Source: Promethearchaeota archaeon
GTDB lineage: Archaea; Asgardarchaeota; Lokiarchaeia; Sigyniarchaeales; SOKP01
NCBI GenBank assembly: GCA_016926735.1
Contig: JAFGOA010000078.1
Coordinates: 1 to 26,265 of the forward strand
Direction: 5' to 3'
Length of the DNA: 26,265 nucleotides
In this document: one piece after another, positions 5,958 to 21,471 of the stretch
How the letters are laid out: the number at the start of each line of letters is the position of its first letter
How positions within the stretch are numbered: the first letter of the stretch is position 1
Notes under the pieces: model-generated
Told to the model about the DNA's origin: nothing
Seen by the model: only the letters and a program-made list of their open reading frames with translations
Database searches by the model: none
Made by a program: the position numbers and the translations under genes

Positions 5958-6022
5958 TTCTATTATTATAAATTCTAAGTTAAACCCTCCTTAACTCAGC
6001 CCGGTAGAGTGCTCGGCTGTAG

Positions 6023-6069
6023 ATAAATTCGCGTATTGAGGTTATACCTATGAAGATACGTCAGCTGAA
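6023..6069 (+). other. tRNA intron 1 (canonical 37/38 position, 47 nt, relaxed BHB)
   Basis: Removal gives the 7-nt anticodon loop CTGTAGA. The central helix CTGT/GCTG has one mismatch, so the motif is relaxed and boundaries could shift by 1 nt. Confidence 0.8.
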
Positions 6070-6091
6070 ACCGAGATGTCGCTGGATCAAA

Positions 6092-6121
6092 AAAAAATTG
6101 AATCTCTCATTTTATTGATAA
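6092..6121 (+). other. tRNA intron 2 (T-loop, position 59/60, 30 nt, BHB)
   Basis: Central helix ATCA(6086-6089)/TGAT(6116-6119), each followed by a 3-nt bulge (AA^A, AA^G) stacked on the T-stem; removal leaves a 7-nt T-loop ATCAAAG. Confidence 0.85.
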
Positions 6122-6362
6122 GCCGGCAGGAGGGACCACTTTATTTTCTTATTTAATTTTATTATTCTAATCTAGTTCTTTGAATAGGAACAACTAAAAT
6201 TTTTAAAAATAAAAAGATATTTATAATCTTAAATAATATATTTTTCTCCAATAAAATTTATATTTCCCATTTTTGAATTTTGTATTTAGAAAGTTTTTAA
6301 TTTATCCAATATATAATTTTATAAACTTATAATAAAAATAATTAAAATAACTAAAATAATAT

Positions 6363-6369
6363 GGTGATC
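6363..6369 (+). promoter_or_regulatory. Shine-Dalgarno motif of the E2 gene
   Basis: GGTGATC is complementary to the conserved 16S 3' end (GAUCACC); GGTGA ends 6 nt before ATT at 6374. Confidence 0.6.
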
Positions 6370-6373
6370 AACG

Positions 6374-6883
6374 ATTAGAGAAGACACAGACTATTCTGAA
6401 TCTGTTGAAGCATTTAAAAATGAAGATCTTGTTATATTAGAACCTTGGGGAAGAAGCATAGATCACCTTCGATTAACTATACTTGGAAAAAAAAATACTC
6501 CATATGAAGGGGGAAAATTTATTTTTGAGGTAAAATTCCCTGAGAATTATCCATTTATGCCACCTTATGTTTATGCGGTAACATTAATGTGGCATCCAAA
6601 TATAGACTCATCAATCCCTCCTGGTAAATTGAATATTTGTTTAGATCTAATAAATCCTGATAAAGTAGGAAAAGTGGATCCAGCAACTGGTGCAAGTGGA
6701 TGGACACCATCAAAAACATTAACAAATATTATTGAAGCATTAAAAGGTATGATGCATGTAGAACCTCCATTCTTTAACCCAGGAGATCCCCTAAATCACG
6801 AAGCAGGAGAGCAATATTTTAGAAATCATAAAAAATTTGTCCAAAAAGCAAAACAATGGACAGAAAAATATGCAATGGACTGA
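6374..6883 (+). CDS. Ubiquitin-conjugating enzyme E2 (about 169 aa, probable ATT start; the ORF track start at 6557 is internal)
   Basis: The frame is open from 6368 and encodes GKKNTPYEGGKFIFEVKFPENYPFMPP, then HPNID, catalytic ICLD, WTP, PLNHEA and AKQWTEKYA, a complete UBC fold. Confidence 0.9.
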   Translation: MREDTDYSESVEAFKNEDLVILEPWGRSIDHLRLTILGKKNTPYEGGKFIFEVKFPENYPFMPPYVYAVTLMWHPNIDSSIPPGKLNICLDLINPDKVGKVDPATGASGWTPSKTLTNIIEALKGMMHVEPPFFNPGDPLNHEAGEQYFRNHKKFVQKAKQWTEKYAMD

Positions 6884-6887
6884 TTGA

Positions 6888-6896
6888 TTTTTTTTT
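6888..6896 (+). terminator. Oligo-T archaeal terminator candidate after the E2 gene
   Basis: T9 run directly after the TGA stop. Confidence 0.4.
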
Positions 6897-6987
6897 ATCC
6901 TTATTTATTTTTTAACCTAATAATTTCAAGTTAATTAAAATATAATTTAGTATCTAAATTAAAAAAATACCAAGACTTATCAATAAA

Positions 6988-7599
6988 ATGCTGGATAAAT
7001 CATCTTTTTACAAAAAAAAAATAATTATTTTTGATTTAGATGGTACAATAGTAGATTTAGATGTAGATTGGAAGTATTTGAAAAATATTTTAAGAAATAG
7101 ATATCATGCAAAATATAAAGAGTATTGTGAGTTCAGAAGTATTTCTGATTGTTTAAATCAAATTGTTAAAAAGAAAGATGAAGAAGAACTTTTAGAGATT
7201 TTTAAGATAGTAGAAGATTTTGAGATAAAAACTATTGATAAAACCAAGCCTATTAATGAAGTTATTTCTTTTATAAAGAATATTTCAAATATACCTTTTT
7301 TAAATAATATTAAATTAGCAATATTTTCCCTTAATACAAGAAAAACAATTATCCAAGCTCTAAAATTATTTAATGTATCAAATAGATTTGATTTTATTAT
7401 TGGAAAAGAAGATGTAAGATATTGGAAACCAAATCCTGAGGGATTATTAAAAATTAGATCTTTTTTTGGTGTTGAGACAGAGGATATGATTTATTTTGGA
7501 GATACTGAAAGGGATTTAATAACGGGAAAAAATGCGAATATAGATTCTGTTTTAATTTATGATCTCATTGAGTTTATCGTGAATAATTATAATTTTTAA
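6988..7599 (+). CDS. HAD-superfamily hydrolase (phosphoglycolate-phosphatase-like)
   Basis: Motif I FDLDGTIVD, motif II SLN, KPNPEG, and motif IV GDTERD. Confidence 0.88.
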   Translation: MLDKSSFYKKKIIIFDLDGTIVDLDVDWKYLKNILRNRYHAKYKEYCEFRSISDCLNQIVKKKDEEELLEIFKIVEDFEIKTIDKTKPINEVISFIKNISNIPFLNNIKLAIFSLNTRKTIIQALKLFNVSNRFDFIIGKEDVRYWKPNPEGLLKIRSFFGVETEDMIYFGDTERDLITGKNANIDSVLIYDLIEFIVNNYNF

Positions 7600-7661
7600 A
7601 GATAGAATTTTCAAAAAAAAAACCTTACATCTTTAAATCTATTGATAATTTTATTTTTTTT

Positions 7662-8321
7662 ATGGAATTTAAAAAAAAAATATTCATTTTCAGTATAAGT
7701 ATTTTGTTTATAATTTCTTTGCTGGGAAATACAAACGCATTAGTTATAGATGATAGTGAAGTTGGAATTAATCAAGGAGATATATATAGATGGAATTACT
7801 ATATTAACGATACATTTCAGTGGACCATGCAGATTAGTATCTCAGATATATCTACTCAAGGCGGGAACTTAGTGGTCGAGGGTGAAATTAAGGATTTAGG
7901 GACTCTAGGGTATCAATATACTGGCAATTTATTAGAGTTTAATGATACCACGGATTTTCTAGATCTAAGTGGACAAATTGATTTATTAGATTTAGGTGGA
8001 TATTGTATTATTCCAATTCCTTTAAATCTCACACTAATGACAATGTATTTAGACAATGAACATGGATTAGCCAACCTAAACATTACAGATAATTTAATTT
8101 ACGGAGATTACCCAAATATGCATTTTTATTGGTATTATAATTCTCAAGGACTCTTGACTCAAGGGGGAATATTGGTAGGTGAAACATTGCAGACAATGGT
8201 ATTAGTAACCAATAATGATGGTGGGAATATCCCAATAGGTTATACAATTTACCTCATAATATCACTCTCAATAATAGTACTTCTTATCAAGAAATATAAT
8301 CGAACTATTATTCGGAGATAA
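7662..8321 (+). CDS. Secreted surface protein with Loki-CTERM-like C-terminal anchor
   Basis: Signal peptide MEFKKKIFIFSISILFIISLLG, VGINQGD.Y.W start of the mature domain, C-terminal IPIGY + TM helix + basic tail. Confidence 0.75.
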   Translation: MEFKKKIFIFSISILFIISLLGNTNALVIDDSEVGINQGDIYRWNYYINDTFQWTMQISISDISTQGGNLVVEGEIKDLGTLGYQYTGNLLEFNDTTDFLDLSGQIDLLDLGGYCIIPIPLNLTLMTMYLDNEHGLANLNITDNLIYGDYPNMHFYWYYNSQGLLTQGGILVGETLQTMVLVTNNDGGNIPIGYTIYLIISLSIIVLLIKKYNRTIIRR

Positions 8322-8378
8322 TTTTTTTTAATTTTGGAGAAAAAATTAAAATAAAATTAGGAAAAAATCTATTTAAAA

Positions 8379-9998
8379 CTACATATATGTTATAACAACA
8401 TTAAATTTTTTAATAACAGAGTTTTCTTTAGCTTCTCCTAAAGGGATGAGGGCCACAATTGCATTACTATCAATTTTTAAATCAGCTTTAAGTTTTAAAT
8501 TAGGAACTTTTAATGATTCTACATAGGGATTCCAATAAAACTCTTTAGTCATTGGATTTGTCATAATCCATAGATCTGGATCTAGATCATAACCACTCAT
8601 AGTCATAGCTTTAAAAATATATTCAACATCCGCATCGAAGGGTACTACTATTTGAACATTTTCTTCACCTTCAATATTTCCACACGCAAGACAGGATTCT
8701 CGCTTTTGAATTTCCAAACAGTCAAATTGTCCATAAACGCCATTATAATTAATATATGAAGGATACATAGGTGGACCAATATTCCTTCCTTTAACTCTAA
8801 ATAATAACTTTAATGCTTCTTGGGATTCTATACTGGAAATGATAGAACTCACAGTTTGAATAGCAGCGATTTTATTTTCTAAAATATTTTCCATTTCTTC
8901 AAATTTATAATCGGGTCCAAAGGTTTTTCTAATATTTTCTTTCCATTCATTTACTTCTTGTTCTGTGAGAGTTTGTAATTTTTCTAAAGGAATATTTTCT
9001 TCAAATACTCGATTTCTCAATGCCTCTAATTCATTTTGAGCTAATTCAATTAAAAAATTAACATCATCATCTTTATTGAAATCAGGTTTTTTTCCATATT
9101 TTTTTTGAAAATCGACTTCTGCTTTTATGACACAATGATTTCTATTTCTTGGTAAACCTTTAAGTGTACAAGCTGCTACTAATTTATTAGCTGGGGGAGG
9201 AATTGGAACTAAACATCTATAACAAGCTGTTTGATTCATTTTATTAGGAGCATAATCTTCATCAAACTTATATTTTATATTATCACGTATTTTTTCAATA
9301 ACAGGCTCGATTTTTTCTTCTCGAATTTTATCAATTTCATTTTCCAATTCTTCAATTTTAGCTCTAGCAGAAAAATATTCAGGATAATCATCTTCATTAA
9401 GTTTCCATAACTCAGATTCTAAAATTTTCTCAATTTCTTTCTCACGAGAACCATAATCAAGATTTGATCCTTTAGGAATTATTATTTGAACATGACCTTC
9501 AAAACCTACAGTTCCTCCTTCTACAATAGGTTTTTTTAATCTTAAACATATTTTATTCAGATCTAATCTGGCATTAAAATTATCTAAGGCCATAATAATA
9601 ACATCTGCCTCTTCATAGACAGACATAGGTAATTTTTGAAGTTTTTCAAAATAGAAATTTATTTTCAAAAAGGGATTCATTTCCTTTAATCGTTCAGCGG
9701 CTACTTCTGCTTTAGGTCTACCTTCATCTCCTGGCTTAAATAACATTTGACGGGATAAATTTGACGTTTCAATTGTGTCTAAATCAATTAATATTAATTT
9801 TCCAATTCCCATTAAAGCAAAGTCTTTAGCGATCTCACATCCTTACGTGTATGTTATTAATTATAACAAACTTAACGCGCCCACACCAACAATCATTATA
9901 GTCCCATTATCGAGAATGTCTTGATTCCAACCATCTATGAGTTGTTGTCTAGAATACATTCTTGATTTTTTTCTTTCTACATTTTTATTATCAATCAT
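8379..9998 (-). CDS. Ubiquitin-like activating enzyme E1 (ThiF family, UBA3/UBA2-like), spliced: exon 1 9998-9873, exon 2 9842-8379; about 529 aa
   Basis: Exon 1 reads MIDNK...MYSRQQLIDGWNQDILDNGTIMIVGVGAL. Exon 2 reads GCEIAKDFALMGIGKLILIDLDTIETSNLSRQMLF...KAEVAA...ALDNFNAR...GTVGFEG, then CYRC, catalytic ACTLKGLPRNRNHC and CLAC. Confidence 0.9.
9843..9872 (-). other. 30-nt BHB-type mRNA intron in the E1 gene
   Basis: mRNA: GCGU-UA^A-GUUUGUUAU-AAUUA-AUAACAUAC-ACGU-AA^G. It has a 4-bp central helix, 3-nt bulges, a 9-bp intron stem with one U.U mismatch and two in-frame UAA; excision restores GALGCE. Confidence 0.85.
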
Positions 9999-10156: not shown

Positions 10157-13100
10157 TTATTTTTTTTTCATTGTCTCTCTGAGCATTTTCTTGATTTCGT
10201 TAACATTTTCTTTCTCTTTTTCTTCTTGTATTTTTTGTTTTTCTTTTAATTTTGTTTCTTTTGACTCTTTAATCTTTTGTAAGAGATCTTCTTTCAAACG
10301 GATTAATCTTTTCATACTTTTTCCAAATAGTTTTGCATCTTCCTTAATCTGCTTTTCTTGAGATTTAGTCTTAAGTTTTTCTTTGAGAATTTCATCTTTA
10401 ATTGATTCAGATGCTTTTTGAGTAAAATTACCAACTTGATTAACAGTCTTCTTCATAAAATCAGATTTTTTAGATCTTTCATATTCTTCGAAAATTTTTT
10501 GCTCTTCAAGATGTTGTGTCATTATTTTTCTATGAACTTCCATTTTGTTTATCTTATCTTCAAGTTCTCTGATATTTTTTATTTCAAGTTCAAGATATTT
10601 TATTTGATGATTCCAACCAAGAGATTTGAATGTTTGAATCGCTTTATTATAATAATTATATGATTCATTAAAATGATATTCTGCAGCCGCATGTTTTGCT
10701 TTATCAATATATTCATATGCTTCTGATTGAAGCTGATTAAGCTTTTCTTTTTGCTCAACATATTCTCTTATTTTTAATGTTTTCTCCATTTCTTTTTTCT
10801 TAATTTCTAATTTTTGTCTTTCAATCTCTTGGAGGTATTGTTCATGCTCCCTCTGCCTTCTAAGTTCTAAAAATTTATCTCTTTTCTTTTTATTAAAATA
10901 GTTTATTTCTTCATTACGCACTTCATTGATTAAATCATTAATTTTATTTATTTCTGGTTCCCAACCAATAGTAGCAGCTAAGAAGTCTCGAGCCTCAATA
11001 TAAAGAGAAATTGCTTTCTGATAATCTGGAGGAATTAATTGTAAATATTCTGTTGCCTTTTCTAAAAGAGAATATGCAGTATCTCTTTGGGACATCTGTT
11101 TTTGTAAAATTTCATCTTTCTGGATCCTAATCAAATTTTCATTGAGAGCTTGAGTCCTTTCTCTTCTTTTTCTCTCTCTTATCAAAAGATTAAGATCTCT
11201 ATCTTGTTCAAGATTTTGTAATTCTTTTTGATAAATTAATTGTTTCTCTCTTTCTTTCTGTTCTTTTAATCCTATTATTTTTTTAATAGATTCACTAATC
11301 GAATTTGTAGGAAACTGGATTTGATCTAAAAGTGATTTTGCTTTTCTATATGATTCTATTGCTTGGTCAAATTGAGAATTATAAACAAGATTTTCTGCAT
11401 CATCTAATAAATTAAAAGCTTCTTGTCGTTTATTTTCAATTATTTGTTTTCTTTCTTCAAATTCATGAATTTTTATTTGTTTTTCTTGTAATTTTATTCT
11501 TTTATTATCAAACTCTTTTGCAATTCTAGTTTGAAATTCTTTATCTTCCAATTGTCTTTTTTGTTGTAATTCAAAATTTCTTTGCTTTTCTATTTGGTCT
11601 CTTCGTTTTTGTTCTTGAACTTTAGAAATCATTTCATCAATAAGATGTGTGGGGTAGTTTATTTGATTTAAAATAGTTTTAGAATTAAAATATAATTCAA
11701 GTGCCTTATCATAATCACCTCTTTCTACGATATCTTGAGCTTGTTCTAATAAATTCAAAGCTTTATCTTTTTCAACCTCTTGTAATTGAATCGATTTTTC
11801 TCTTTCCCTAAGTTGAACTTCTTTTTTCTGTATTTCTTTTCTTTCTATAACCATTTGCTCATTAATTCTTTTTTGAAACTCTTCTTCTTCCTTTAATTTT
11901 CTGATCTTTTCTTCCATTTGGCGATTTTTTATTTCATCTAATTCTCTCTTTTTTTCTTTCACTTCAGAAATAGATCTTTGAATTAAATCTATTTCATCTA
12001 TCCAGTTAATTTCTTCGAAAATATTCATTGAATTTTGATATGCAAGAATTGCATTATCAAGTTCACCTGTAGATACATAGTTTCTTGCTGAATCTAAATA
12101 ATTAAAAGCAAGTTCCTTTCTTTTTTCAAAATATTCTTTTTCTTTCTCTCTTTCTCTAATTATTAATTCTTTATTTTCTAATACTTTTCTCTCTATACTT
12201 AAGTTTTTAGAAACAAATTCTTGAAAGTCTTGATTCTGTTTTAAAATATCCTCTTTTTGTTTTTGCTGCTGGATTTCCATATTGAGATGAGATTCTTTCT
12301 TAGTTTTTACACTATTAATTGTGTTTTGGATTGTAGGAATATAATATTCCCAACCTTTCCCCATATCTTTAAGGAAATCTAAAGCATTATTATACTCTTT
12401 AATTGCATCATCAAATTCCTCATAATTAATTAAATGATCTGCTTTTTCTAAGATTTTAAAAAATTTCTCTTCTTTTTCCTTTTCCTCTCTTTTACGAGTT
12501 TCATATGCTTCCAATTTTTGAACTTGTTCTTGAGAGGATATATCTACAGTATCATGAGATTTTTTGTCAATAAATTCTTTAATTTCATAAATTCTCTCCT
12601 CCTGCATTTTTCTTCTTTGTCTTTCAGCAATCTTCATTTCCTTCCTTTCATTAATTTGCCCTAATAATTCCTCAAATGGTTGAATATATGATCCCCAATT
12701 AATTGATTTGAAGAGATCTATTGCTTGATTGACTTGATCAATTGCTTCATCATATTTCTCATTTTTATCTAATTCATTTGCATCATCGATCAATTTAAAT
12801 GCTTCTTCTCTAATTCTTTCTTCCTCATTTTTTGCTTCTAAATATGATTCTTGAAGGGATTGAAAATTCTTTTTTGTCTCAACTATTCCATGCTGCTTAG
12901 GTTTTTGATCGATATATTGTAATGTTTTTTGTCTTTTAATAAGATCTTGAGATCCTAAATTCTTATTGAGATATTTTATCTTTTCCAAAATGTGTTGTAA
13001 TTGTACTCCAGTCCAACCAGACTCTTTTAATAGTTGTATAGCCAATTCGTATTTCTTTATCGCTTTCTGAAAATTTCCTTCTTTCTCTAACCCTTCCGCT

Positions 13101-13384
13101 TGTTCTATAAGAAGAAATGCTTCTTTTTGGAGTTTACTACGTTCTTCTGAAATACCAAGTTGTTTTGATTTCTTTTTATCCTCTAATAATTCTACAAGCT
13201 CATCAATATGATCTTGTACATCATTATTTCTATGTGGTAAATACCCACTCTCTATAAGATTCTTTAATGCCTCTTGATATATCTCTATTGCTTTTTCTAT
13301 ATCATCTTCAGCTTCATATTTTCCTGCTAATTCTAAAGCTTTAATTGCCTCTTGAGCTAATTCATCTGAATCTGAATTTTTCAT
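10157..13384 (-). CDS. Large helical repeat protein: nine MIT/TPR-like modules joined by charged helical linkers
   Basis: The motif A(F/Y)xL(L/I)(D/E)xA...(Y/F)DxAIxxYxxAxxx(L/F)xx(I/L)x(W/F/Y) recurs nine times, mostly about 115 aa apart, with E/K/Q/R-rich spacers. Confidence 0.75.
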   Translation of the reverse strand: MKNSDSDELAQEAIKALELAGKYEAEDDIEKAIEIYQEALKNLIESGYLPHRNNDVQDHIDELVELLEDKKKSKQLGISEERSKLQKEAFLLIEQAEGLEKEGNFQKAIKKYELAIQLLKESGWTGVQLQHILEKIKYLNKNLGSQDLIKRQKTLQYIDQKPKQHGIVETKKNFQSLQESYLEAKNEEERIREEAFKLIDDANELDKNEKYDEAIDQVNQAIDLFKSINWGSYIQPFEELLGQINERKEMKIAERQRRKMQEERIYEIKEFIDKKSHDTVDISSQEQVQKLEAYETRKREEKEKEEKFFKILEKADHLINYEEFDDAIKEYNNALDFLKDMGKGWEYYIPTIQNTINSVKTKKESHLNMEIQQQKQKEDILKQNQDFQEFVSKNLSIERKVLENKELIIREREKEKEYFEKRKELAFNYLDSARNYVSTGELDNAILAYQNSMNIFEEINWIDEIDLIQRSISEVKEKKRELDEIKNRQMEEKIRKLKEEEEFQKRINEQMVIERKEIQKKEVQLREREKSIQLQEVEKDKALNLLEQAQDIVERGDYDKALELYFNSKTILNQINYPTHLIDEMISKVQEQKRRDQIEKQRNFELQQKRQLEDKEFQTRIAKEFDNKRIKLQEKQIKIHEFEERKQIIENKRQEAFNLLDDAENLVYNSQFDQAIESYRKAKSLLDQIQFPTNSISESIKKIIGLKEQKEREKQLIYQKELQNLEQDRDLNLLIRERKRRERTQALNENLIRIQKDEILQKQMSQRDTAYSLLEKATEYLQLIPPDYQKAISLYIEARDFLAATIGWEPEINKINDLINEVRNEEINYFNKKKRDKFLELRRQREHEQYLQEIERQKLEIKKKEMEKTLKIREYVEQKEKLNQLQSEAYEYIDKAKHAAAEYHFNESYNYYNKAIQTFKSLGWNHQIKYLELEIKNIRELEDKINKMEVHRKIMTQHLEEQKIFEEYERSKKSDFMKKTVNQVGNFTQKASESIKDEILKEKLKTKSQEKQIKEDAKLFGKSMKRLIRLKEDLLQKIKESKETKLKEKQKIQEEKEKENVNEIKKMLRETMKKK

Positions 13385-15925: not shown

Positions 15926-16453
15926 ATGTCAAGCTTCAAATTAAAAGTACTTTTAACGGGAGCAGCAGCTTGCGGTAAAACTAGTCTTGTTCAAAGGTTT
16001 ATAAAAAACCATTTTCAAGCAAATTATAAATTAACTGTTGGAGTAGATATTCTTACAAAGGATGTTGAATTTCAACCAGGAGAAGTTGCTACACTCTCTA
16101 TTTGGGATATTGGAGGGCAACAAAGATTTGAATTTATCAGAAGTACATTCTATAAAGGAGCAGCAGGAACATTATTAGTATTTGATCTAACAAGAGAACA
16201 AACATACACTGAAACAAAGAAATGGTTAACAGAGATAAGACAATTTGCTGGTGAAAATATTCCTTTTGTACTAGTTGGAAATAAAGCAGATTTACTTGAA
16301 GATGTAGGTCGTGTTATTGATAGTGATGAAGCAAGGAAATTTGCCGAGGATGAGGGAAGCATTTATATTGAAACTTCAGCAAAAACAGGTAATCATGTTG
16401 ATGATGCATTTACGGAATTAACTCGCCGAATAATTAATTCTAGAACAAAATAA
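15926..16453 (+). CDS. Rab-like small GTPase (Ras superfamily)
   Basis: G1 GAAACGKTS, G2 T in YKLTVGVD, G3 WDIGGQ, G4 NKAD, G5 ETSAK; RabF-like motifs; GGAG SD upstream; no C-terminal Cys. Confidence 0.93.
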   Translation: MSSFKLKVLLTGAAACGKTSLVQRFIKNHFQANYKLTVGVDILTKDVEFQPGEVATLSIWDIGGQQRFEFIRSTFYKGAAGTLLVFDLTREQTYTETKKWLTEIRQFAGENIPFVLVGNKADLLEDVGRVIDSDEARKFAEDEGSIYIETSAKTGNHVDDAFTELTRRIINSRTK

Positions 16454-18160: not shown

Positions 18161-19402
18161 TTATGATTTATTTCCTAATGATTGATTAATCTCAGCGATT
18201 CTTATTTTTATTGTATCCATTTCACTACTTAATTTTACATTTTGTTTATCATAAGTATTCGCATCCATTTTACCAGAATTATAATTCTTTTTAATAAAGC
18301 TCAGTAAGTTTTCCATCGAGTTCAGTTTTCTTTCTAAACTATGTAATTCGTTGTTTAAATTTTCTTTTTCTGATTTTTTCGGAATTTTTATTTTAGTTTT
18401 TTGACTACTTGGTTTAGCAGTTTTTTTTTTTTCCGGTAGTTTAGAGAGAGTAATCTCATTAAAAATATTATCAGATAAATTTGAATATTTTATTAAATTT
18501 TCAATAATCTCTCTCATTCCATTTACTTGAATCAATAAGTTTTGTAAAAAAGATGATAATTCTTGTTTAGAGGAAAAATTATAATCTGTACTTATATCAG
18601 ATGATGTTTGAGTATAAGAAATAGATTGATTTATTATATTTTCATTTACAATTTGATGGTTATTTATTACATCTTCTATTTGTGGTTTAGATTTTTGCTT
18701 TGTAGAGCTTAGTTGTGATTCAAACCTATAATCTGAAATCAACCATTGAAAAATATTCAATGCTAATTGAGAATGTGTATCATAGGATATACCTCCACCA
18801 ATTTTATCTCTAAATATCTCATAACTACCACAACAACATACACGTCCTCTTTCAGGTTCAGAAACACATATTAATGGTGTTGAAAATGGATCTGAAGTAT
18901 CATTTGAGTTCGCAATAGGAATTCCATTCCCTATAATACTAAGGGAACATCCAGCTCGATAACATATTTCTTTAATTCCACTAGTAATTGGGTGAGGGGG
19001 CGTAAAATTAGATATTAAAGGTAGATTTTCTAAACCAAAATTATTTTCATTATCGAGGACTTGATCATTTTCAAAAGATATTCCAAATAACTCTGCTAAC
19101 TCACTTAGATTGCTATTTCTTCCTTTATCACCACCTGCATGAGAAAGTAGTAAAAGTCCACCTCCATCATCTTTAACCCAATTTTCTATCTCTAAAATCT
19201 CTTGGCGAGAGATTTTGGAGAAATCTGGGCAAGAAAAAACCAATATATCATATCCTTTTAATGTTTCTTGAGTAATAGTCGCTTCAAAATATTCATTACA
19301 TATAAAATCATTTTTAGTTAATAATGTATATAATTCTGTAAAATTTTCTTTAAGATTTCCTCTAGGTTTATGTCCTATATCAAAAGCTATATATTGAGGC
19401 AT
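18161..19402 (-). CDS. GIFT/DUF4350 (IFT52/GldG-like, class I GATase fold) domain protein with low-complexity linker and C-terminal helical domain
   Basis: IAFDIGH, LKGYDILVF..P, EI..IENWVKDDGGGLLL, NLSELAELFGISF, HPITSGI and GRV...GS..IF; coiled-coil C-terminus. Confidence 0.65.
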   Translation of the reverse strand: MPQYIAFDIGHKPRGNLKENFTELYTLLTKNDFICNEYFEATITQETLKGYDILVFSCPDFSKISRQEILEIENWVKDDGGGLLLLSHAGGDKGRNSNLSELAELFGISFENDQVLDNENNFGLENLPLISNFTPPHPITSGIKEICYRAGCSLSIIGNGIPIANSNDTSDPFSTPLICVSEPERGRVCCCGSYEIFRDKIGGGISYDTHSQLALNIFQWLISDYRFESQLSSTKQKSKPQIEDVINNHQIVNENIINQSISYTQTSSDISTDYNFSSKQELSSFLQNLLIQVNGMREIIENLIKYSNLSDNIFNEITLSKLPEKKKTAKPSSQKTKIKIPKKSEKENLNNELHSLERKLNSMENLLSFIKKNYNSGKMDANTYDKQNVKLSSEMDTIKIRIAEINQSLGNKS

Positions 19403-20694: not shown

Positions 20695-21471
20695 TCAATA
20701 AAACTTTGATTCATCCGAATTAAAGATTCTTTGCAGGGAACCGAATAAAATATCAACAGAATTCTCTTCTTTTGTTGAACAAGGAATTAATTCAGAAGTT
20801 GAACCCATCTGGATAAAAACCTCTGAGATTAACATAGATAATTCTCTTATTAATCCTTGTTCTCTTTCATTTGTATAGTCCTCTAGTGCTTGGAAATCTT
20901 GACTCCAATTTATAATCATATCTACTTGATCCTCATCTATTAGATCTGTTTTAGATAAAATATTGATCTGTGGGATGTGTCTGAATCTGAATTGTACTGA
21001 AGCAGCCAAAAGTAAGGTCGAAATAAAACCATTTGGTCTTAAAACAAAATTTGAATCAAAGAGAAATGATACGGATTTTTGAACGGCTCCAAGACCTAAA
21101 GAACTCGCAATCAATGGTCCCGTTTCTCTAAAAGAAAATAGTTCTAATTGACCGGCTGTATCCACCAAAACCCAATCAGGATTATATTCTTCAATTTCAT
21201 TTCTTAAATCTCTTATATAATTAACCATTAGATCTGAAGCAAGAATTGTGGCTCCATTTGGGCCAAGCCCATATTTATCCATTACATCTTCTAATATAAT
21301 ATAATCTCTAATATCAATATCTGGATTATAGGGTATATGCTTAACTCCAGGATCAAGATTGATGGTAATGACAGATGTTTCAGGATTTCTGTTAATTATA
21401 TAATTTTTTAAAATACCTGTTAAAGTAGATTTCCCACTTCCAGCAGTACCAATAATATAATTTAATAGAAT
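20695..21471 (-). CDS. GPN-loop GTPase (about 258 aa, probable ATT start; the ORF track start at 21282 is internal)
   Basis: The upstream in-frame segment encodes LLNYIIGTAGSGKST (P-loop) and INLDPG...DIDIRDY, followed by YGLGPNG, DTAGQLELF and SKTD. Confidence 0.9.
   Translation of the reverse strand: MLLNYIIGTAGSGKSTLTGILKNYIINRNPETSVITINLDPGVKHIPYNPDIDIRDYIILEDVMDKYGLGPNGATILASDLMVNYIRDLRNEIEEYNPDWVLVDTAGQLELFSFRETGPLIASSLGLGAVQKSVSFLFDSNFVLRPNGFISTLLLAASVQFRFRHIPQINILSKTDLIDEDQVDMIINWSQDFQALEDYTNEREQGLIRELSMLISEVFIQMGSTSELIPCSTKEENSVDILFGSLQRIFNSDESKFY

Follow-up and report, generated by a model that had tools for sequence, protein, structure and literature searches.

How can a cell make the E1 enzyme of a ubiquitin-like conjugation pathway from a gene whose reading frame stops after 45 codons? 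The question is raised by a stretch of 26,265 nucleotides from a Promethearchaeota archaeon (assembly GCA_016926735.1, contig JAFGOA010000078.1; hereafter the window), in which a tRNA gene, an E2 gene and the interrupted E1 gene lie within 4 kb of each other. An earlier note made from this DNA had described the interruption as an intron with the bulge-helix-bulge (BHB) motif of tRNA introns, and had suggested that splicing by the endonuclease EndA and the ligase RtcB gates ubiquitin-like conjugation. Here, we compared the locus with its relatives and conclude with good confidence that the E1 gene contains a genuine archaeal BHB mRNA intron, a member of a population of mini-introns, which is most probably tolerated and constitutively removed. 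The source genome (G000; 3.88 Mb in 238 contigs, 26% GC, completeness rated at 99.3%) is metagenome-assembled and contains the window as contig C108. It was compared with 80 species loci of Promethearchaeota (Lokiarchaeia), fetched with flanks of ±7 kb and amounting to 81 loci with the window, and control genes were followed in a set of 41 genomes. Genomes are indicated by G-numbers (G001 to G003 are three congeners of the source), fetched loci by L-numbers and contigs of G000 by C-numbers.

The E1 gene lies on the reverse strand. Exon 1 (9873..9998, 42 codons, ATG at 9998-9996) ends in GVGAL, the intron (9843..9872) is 30 nt long with two in-frame TAA codons, and exon 2 (8379..9842, 487 codons plus stop) starts with GCEIAKDF. 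The spliced product would comprise 529 amino acids (aa). E1 matched the ThiF profile above its cut-off (PF00899, E=1.7e-46, 158.8 bits), from model position 42 onward only. The insert splits the codons of the Rossmann motif GxGxxG, and the main frame resumes with GCEIAKDF after the 30 nt. Left unspliced, the message would indeed yield the 45-aa peptide mentioned in the earlier note: the open reading frame (ORF) 9861-9998 holds the first half of the Rossmann motif.

To the E1 insert and to other candidates we applied one BHB rule, in which a central helix of 4 bp lies between bulges of 3 nt in either strand and cleavage falls behind the second bulge base. The window insert has this geometry, with two 3-nt bulges separated by a 4-bp helix: exon GCGU (9878-9875) pairs with ACGU (9848-9845) at all four positions, UA|A (9874-9872) and AA|G (9844-9842) form the bulges, and an inner hairpin (9871-9863 with 9857-9849) forms 8 of 9 pairs with one U.U mismatch and a loop at 9862-9858. 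The cuts join GCG UUA to GGA UGU, by which GVGAL|GCE is restored. Only two junctions in the window restore GVGALGCE, one of which has the 4/4 central and 8/9 inner pairs. The same holds beyond the window, as all nine loci with an E1 intron have a BHB-rule solution that restores GVGALGCE (one to five motif-restoring junctions per locus), with a central helix of 4/4 pairs in three loci and 3/4 in six and an inner helix of 7-9 out of 9 pairs.

Among the 76 loci whose sequence extends over this site, nine have the insert, namely those of the genus clade and L093, L115, L130, L137 and L147, and it is 30 nt long in all of them. All four genomes of the genus contain it, and the 16 loci of other genera that were read are continuous; the E1 open frame measures 487 aa in G000-G003 versus 527-550 aa in other genera. 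In the comparison of same-genus and other-genus loci the exons are 79-96% identical in protein. The introns of the window and L115 share 19 of 30 bases in a hand count on the alignment, and the fold of the intron is kept by compensatory change. In the alignment of the nine sequences 88.9% of the cells pair, compared to 19.8-50.8% in slid controls. In four pairs both sides have changed, one example being an exon GCG>GCA that is matched by an intron C>U, and the covariation score is 0.300 versus 0.032-0.117 for slid partners and was reached in none of 500 shuffles. Geometry, restored frame and covariation together bear out the description of the insert as BHB-type.

These data also bear on the possibility that the gene is dead, i.e. 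recently disrupted, or that the insert is a product of mis-assembly. Such an origin might be suspected in a metagenome-assembled genome of 238 contigs, and the one public DNA run in which every sampled word of the stretch occurs may itself derive from the source sample and thus gives no independent support. The same insert is found at the same site in nine independently assembled species genomes, the exons are strongly conserved and show no other lesion, and the stem accumulates compensatory changes. A dead gene or an assembly error is therefore very unlikely. Separately, an E1 orthologue in L148 (L148:5067-5071) changes frame at about residue 382, where two matches overlap by 5 nt; this does not look like an intron and may be a frameshift or a sequencing error.

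Is the E1 intron a solitary case? The earlier note had proposed scanning the genome for BHB motifs at split genes. A whole-genome scan of G000 that combined the BHB rule with ORF fusion gave 12,307 hits. Three slid controls gave 12,229-12,521, and none of the stricter classes showed an excess either. Because the BHB rule alone is unspecific in a genome of 26% GC, orthologues were compared instead, and this comparison did reveal further introns. Only inserts with a stop codon or a frame shift could be caught by the screens; introns in frame and free of stop codons are invisible to them.

The E2 gene of the window is uninterrupted in the source genome, and its orthologues contain BHB introns at three sites: HVE|PPFF, with inserts of 29, 30 or 32 nt in L091, L106, L127, L135, L147, G005 and G009; FPE|NYP, in L095 and L113; and PPY|AYA, in L150 and G011. 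Each of these introns has a 4/4 central helix, and the BHB rule gives the right frame. E2 introns were found in 8/66 loci of the 81-locus set and in 5 out of 24 genomes that gave an E2 match, the two sets overlapping.

The probable modifier for the E1 and E2 of the window is a ubiquitin-family protein of 85 aa (Ubl) that ends in GG-IF and is encoded on another contig of G000 (C100:9577-9831, L043). Ubl is 92-100% identical in other genera of the family and was matched in 36 of the 41 genomes. Introns interrupt it at two sites, with 31 nt in the congener G001 and 30 nt in G027. The gene for the presumptive EndA beta subunit lies about 9 kb from Ubl on the same contig. G000 further encodes a compact cluster of E2-like, E1-like (411 aa) and ubiquitin-like genes (C237:6406-8592, L044), which is a separate conjugation system.

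For a less directed comparison, 790 kb of the relatives G018 and G013 were searched against G000 by tblastn, and 571 ORFs of the relatives matched at ≥40% identity. Besides E1, two interrupted G000 genes emerged. The first is a MoCF_biosynth/CinA-like gene whose halves match Pfam model positions 2-66 and 67-143. Its intron (C151:13293-13321, reverse strand, L179) is 29 nt long, frame-shifting, BHB-like and located at SGGL|GPT, with the same bulges, UA|A and AA|G, as the E1 intron. The second is an EF-2 paralogue (EF-2a) with a 31-nt intron in the P-loop, GHIDHG|KTT (C188:20431-20461, L180), which has the central helix ACGG/CUGU and the bulges AA|A and AU|A. The interruption of EF-2a is shared by the four genomes of the genus and missing from 16 other genera, and the open frames are 696-710 aa long in the genus versus at least 730 aa in the other full-length matches. 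A second paralogue (EF-2b) has 30-nt inserts in the P-loop in G002 (L185) and G006 (L184) and in the switch I region, MTDSD|DEEQ, in G007 (L181) and G015 (L182); these four putative introns were identified by their length of 30 nt, their stop codons and their site. The reverse comparison, in which 646 G000 ORFs had matches in the G018 and G013 stretches, revealed no intron, its one candidate being an antisense artefact. The E1 intron is therefore not a one-off, as E2, Ubl, MoCF and EF-2 genes of the source genome or its relatives have introns as well.

Several other candidates were rejected in the course of these comparisons. Those on C110, C131, C210, C144 and C188 (44765-45517) reflected alignment run-on upstream of start codons or a poor BHB fit, and an apparent insert on G018 C2 was an antisense ORF of what by eye appears to be a UvrA-type gene. 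A second Ubl copy in G026 has a deletion and not an intron, an E2 paralogue in G014 is uninterrupted in its aligned part, and several partial matches end at contig ends. Antisense ORF family 18, a mirror image of the E2 introns, did not enter the counts.

Could the E1 protein be made with no RNA splicing at all? Elements at which ribosomes bypass part of a message, as in phage T4 gene 60, look like a hairpin with an early stop codon, and so does the E1 insert; alternatively, an ATG at 9812 could start a 477-aa ORF that would complement the 45-aa peptide as a split protein. Neither fits the collected introns. In more than 20 cases, spread over nine sites and six genes, the inserts follow the EndA geometry down to the single base. 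Cuts placed by the rule put the E2, Ubl, MoCF and EF-2 genes, whose introns are 29-32 nt long, back into the right frame, and for inserts of 29, 31 and 32 nt it is the rule alone that gives this frame. In the central helix exon bases pair with intron bases and co-vary with them, the take-off and landing codons (UUA, then GGA) are unmatched, and a break inside GxGxxG would disrupt the nucleotide-binding loop. We therefore regard bypass or a split protein as highly improbable.

Splicing as favored here calls for an endonuclease and a ligase. G000 contains two EndA genes (C33, 203 aa; C100, 202 aa), each with an N-terminal and a catalytic-type domain, the latter scoring 99 and 65 bits. The earlier note had asked for the EndA architecture; with lengths of about 200 aa, the two genes are compatible with an alpha+beta enzyme. 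The second EndA lacks the Tyr and His of the first, which we take to be catalytic residues and compared by eye. The ligase is less straightforward. RtcB is present in the congeners G001-G003 and in 11 of the 13 genomes searched, and it was not found in G000, either by family search (PF01139) or by tblastn with an RtcB of the same family; its absence is probably an assembly gap. Asgard archaea are described as having an (alpha-beta)2 EndA with an L1 loop that allows relaxed motifs, and the relaxed HBh' form is known for non-canonical introns cut by such enzymes (excerpt of PMC5829648).

In the mechanism that we propose, the E1 pre-mRNA would fold such that exon GCG-U pairs with ACGU near the 3' end of the intron in a 4-bp helix, flanked by the two 3-nt bulges and a 9-bp intron hairpin and almost devoid of an outer helix. 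An alpha+beta EndA would cut after the second base of each bulge, and an RtcB-type ligase would join GCG UUA to GGA UGU. Joining would restore the GxGxxG ATP-binding loop and the 529-aa E1, and an unspliced mRNA would stop after 45 codons. Given that the insert is BHB-type, E1 synthesis should depend on EndA and an RNA ligase. The E1 intron would then be one of a small, fast-turnover population of 29-32-nt BHB mini-introns in Lokiarchaeial protein genes.

Some of our data weigh against this reading. The strict hBHBh' form is absent from the E1 insert, as the outer exon-exon helix scores 1-3 of 5 pairs, and the central helix is mismatched in 6/9 loci. The insert thus resembles a relaxed HBh' substrate, and its cleavage by the EndA of G000 itself is predicted from sequence. 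The missing RtcB gene points in the same direction. Cutting, joining and the efficiency of both are steps that we infer, and among the public runs listed with the E1 stretch there is no RNA run. The background intron rates are lower bounds, given that the screens needed a stop codon or a frame shift. Finally, mere tolerance leaves unexplained why introns are concentrated in E1, E2 and Ubl over neighbors and controls.

This concentration speaks in favor of gating, the idea that introns are kept in Ubl, E1 and E2 to place conjugation under EndA/RtcB control in a manner analogous to HAC1/XBP1. Proteins would then be tagged only while the cell has splicing capacity to spare or induces it. All three genes of the pathway are repeated hosts. 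In the flanks of the 80 loci we counted 21 other ORF families with at least six loci each, giving 458 instances and including some spurious ORFs, and found a single well-supported interruption (family 8 in L131), which is an un-intron-like broken C-terminal tail and was rejected. In conservation several of these families come close to E1, with median identities of 69-73% versus 75%. In the 41-genome set the controls OTCase (0/37) and HDAC (0/38; one TAG at an alignment end and one stop-free 36-nt surplus) were uninterrupted, as were the RtcB genes (0/14). A Fisher test of 9/76 or 8/66 versus 0-1/458 gives p values of about 1e-7 to 1e-8 that ignore kinship and overstate the significance, because relatives are not independent. 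Other observations may be read in the same way. A quick E1 tree places the E1 intron in four separate groups, and within one clade of this tree, whose end branches measure 0.018-0.041, E2 is interrupted at site C (PPY|AYA) in L150, at site A (HVE|PPFF) in L127 and L135, and at none in L149 and L139, which suggests repeated gain or retention. A TAA or TAG stands in frame at intron codon 4 in 9/9 E1 introns, and the E2 of the window has a weak ATT start besides.

The same survey contains the arguments against gating. In most species the pathway operates without any intron (67/76 E1 loci, 58/66 E2 loci). The EF-2 paralogues are interrupted in at least 8 of 82 gene copies, about as often as E1 and E2, and the unrelated MoCF gene is hit as well, so that the preference is not ubiquitin-specific. 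The conserved stop codon lies within a constrained hairpin, and the screen selected for stops. The adjacency of tRNA and E2 is inherited synteny, and the T-loop intron of the tRNA is itself variable. Furthermore, neither a sensor nor a regulated step is known for EndA or RtcB of archaea. The intron hot spots are E1, E2, Ubl and both EF-2 paralogues; this kind of intron is not specific to ubiquitin genes, and given the EF-2 mini-introns, tolerated insertions fit better than a dedicated ubiquitin switch. We consider gating unlikely. A broader version, in which tRNA-type introns of about 30 nt are repeatedly acquired and preferentially kept in Ubl, E1, E2 and EF-2 as a regulated EndA/RtcB splicing checkpoint, appears quite unlikely to us as well. 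Gating is what one might infer from the clustering in Ubl, E1 and E2, which makes the idea worth testing.

Because close relatives differ in the E2 intron site, turnover must be fast. The introns are hosted in stretches of high conservation, of which three are rich in Gly (GVGAL|GCE, GHIDHG|KTT and SGGL|GPT). In a genome this rich in AT, the GC-containing codons of the host sites may provide the exon side of the central helix. The earlier note had further suggested that mRNA introns may arise from tRNA-type introns. This could not be substantiated: blastn-short searches of G000 with the tRNA, MoCF and EF-2 introns returned partial matches of 12-25 nt only (best E 0.052), and the search with E1 revealed no likeness, its query being displaced by 10 nt and thus made up of 20 nt of intron and 10 nt of exon. 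Descent of the mRNA introns from tRNA introns is at present a structural analogy.

The tRNA gene of the window lies next to E2. No RNA gene was called in the raw window by ARAGORN or Rfam. When two inserts are removed, 5985..6138 on the forward strand yields a 77-nt cloverleaf with a GUA anticodon, which ARAGORN identifies as tRNA-Tyr(gta) with an encoded CCA (6136-6138). The exons are 5985-6022, 6070-6091 and 6122-6138. Intron 1 (6023-6069, 47 nt) is located at position 37/38 and intron 2 (6092-6121, 30 nt) at position 59/60 in the T loop; if only the second insert is cut, ARAGORN reports a tRNA-Tyr with a 47-nt intron at position 37. Two BHB-type introns had been proposed for this tRNA and both were recovered, though with different quality of fit. 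The 59/60 intron is strict under the BHB rule, with a 4/4 central helix (AUCA/UGAU), bulges of AA|A and AA|G, and an outer helix of 5/5 pairs formed by the T stem, and the 37/38 intron is a looser fit with a 3/4 central helix. As noted earlier, the T-loop and E1 introns are both AT-rich hairpins of 30 nt with their 3' cut in AA|G. The T loop (6086-6122) has an A at position 54 (A-U-C-R-A), where U is usual, and this A is kept in the listed orthologues.

The note had also proposed a synteny check. At most 7 kb separates E1 from E2 in the window and in 66 of the 80 loci that were fetched, and tRNA-Tyr adjoins E2 in 42 of the 80. Among the tRNA-Tyr orthologues the canonical intron is kept, and T-loop, variable-region and other inserts vary between relatives. 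Multi-intron tRNA genes have been described for Asgard archaea (bioRxiv 10.64898/2026.10.13.758758 without its supplements; excerpt of PMC5829648), and this tRNA-Tyr is an ordinary member of that group, with a canonical and a T-arm intron at BHB motifs, missed by standard tools, and with extra introns that vary. Since such genes were already known, the tRNA is an ordinary neighbor that inherited its place beside E2, and not a partner of E1 or E2.

The E2 gene (6374..6883, forward strand) encodes a UBC-fold protein that matches UQ_con (PF00179) over 6368-6883 with E=1.4e-27 and 96.5 bits, above the curated cut-off, and its active-site motif HPN...NICLD can be read directly in the sequence. A non-standard start had been noted for this gene, and comparison places it at the ATT 6374-6376. 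The frame contains no ATG, GTG or TTG before 6557, which is mid-domain; the ATT aligns with the ATG of MREETDY in L024, L025, L027, L028, L031 and L036, all from other genera, and the start is also ATT in L026, from another genus again. The Shine-Dalgarno-like GGTGAT at 6363..6368, 5 nt upstream of the ATT as read from the sequence, presumably matches the 3' end of 16S rRNA, and GGTGAT and ATT are both kept in two loci of the same genus, L022 and L023. AUU-start genes behind a Shine-Dalgarno sequence are known from E. coli (infC, pcnB), and the E2 gene resembles them in having its ATT a few bases after GGTGAT; it differs in being archaeal and in sharing its non-ATG habit with other genes of the lineage.

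One such gene encodes a GPN-loop GTPase (PF03029, 20695-21477, reverse strand), in which no ATG, GTG or TTG precedes the P-loop. Its likely start is the ATT at 21471-21469, 9 nt behind GAGAGGT, and it would be the second ATT-start gene of the window. We had considered it as intron-split, as it looked N-terminally cut in Pfam (20695-21282), and rejected this when the P-loop was found upstream in the same open frame, which indicates a non-ATG start. The two-intron tRNA-Tyr and the ATT-start E2 are thus separate habits of the lineage that are merely adjacent to the E1 intron.

Elsewhere in the window, eukaryote-like proteins are encoded at 10157-13384 (a 1075-aa MIT/TPR array adjoining E1), at 15926-16453 (a Ras-family small GTPase) and at 18161-19402 (a protein with an IFT52 GIFT-like domain). 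Among the window ORFs tested against families, five matched none at all, and no match to a ubiquitin, RING or JAMM family was obtained; this agrees with the earlier statement that no ubiquitin or E3 gene is visible in the window.

The practical consequence concerns annotation. Gene callers will give a 45-aa stump and an N-terminally truncated E1, truncated E2, EF-2 and MoCF genes and no tRNA-Tyr, and reconstructions of the Asgard ubiquitin system from called proteins will miss or mis-size these genes. For the study of the introns themselves, turnover fast enough for sister species to differ provides natural presence/absence pairs, which allow asking how introns arrive, why a few genes are struck repeatedly and whether the tRNA machinery ever splices mRNA in a regulatory way.

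Two known systems put these introns into perspective. The BHB intron in the cbf5 gene was reportedly described by Watanabe (2002) and Yoshinari (2006). It is found in the cbf5 pre-mRNA of Crenarchaeota (Desulfurococcales and Sulfolobales; excerpt of PMC2738675) and, judging from that excerpt, is similar to the introns studied here in being a short protein-gene intron with the motif of the tRNA-splicing endonuclease, in a lineage with hetero-oligomeric EndA and with gain and loss among relatives. The hosts in the present study are different, namely E1, E2, Ubl, EF-2 and MoCF; the lineage is Asgard (Promethearchaeota); several sites are used per gene, very close relatives differ, and the introns are known from sequence alone. 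In the literature searched, archaeal protein-gene BHB introns were described only for cbf5 of Crenarchaeota, and none was reported in Asgard protein genes. The literature searched includes the preprint 10.64898/2026.10.13.758758 without its supplements, the main text of which covers tRNA genes only, contains the word 'mRNA' 0 times and uses protein-coding genes as synteny markers. New here are the BHB introns in E2 orthologues, Ubl, both EF-2 paralogues and the MoCF gene. The same mechanism would now appear in Asgard archaea, in catalytic loops of a eukaryote-like E1, in its E2 and modifier, and in EF-2.

The second system is eukaryotic. The stress sensor IRE1 cuts HAC1 and XBP1 mRNAs at stem-loops, and a tRNA ligase or RtcB joins the exons. 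The E1 intron would be analogous in being a short, non-spliceosomal mRNA intron, in its joining by a tRNA-type ligase and in leaving an unspliced message without active protein. The two differ in the cut, made there by IRE1 at stem-loops and here predicted to be made by EndA at a BHB motif, and in that regulation is demonstrated for HAC1/XBP1. If gating were nevertheless true, the archaea most closely related to eukaryotes would possess, in a regulated splicing checkpoint, a prokaryotic equivalent of HAC1/XBP1.

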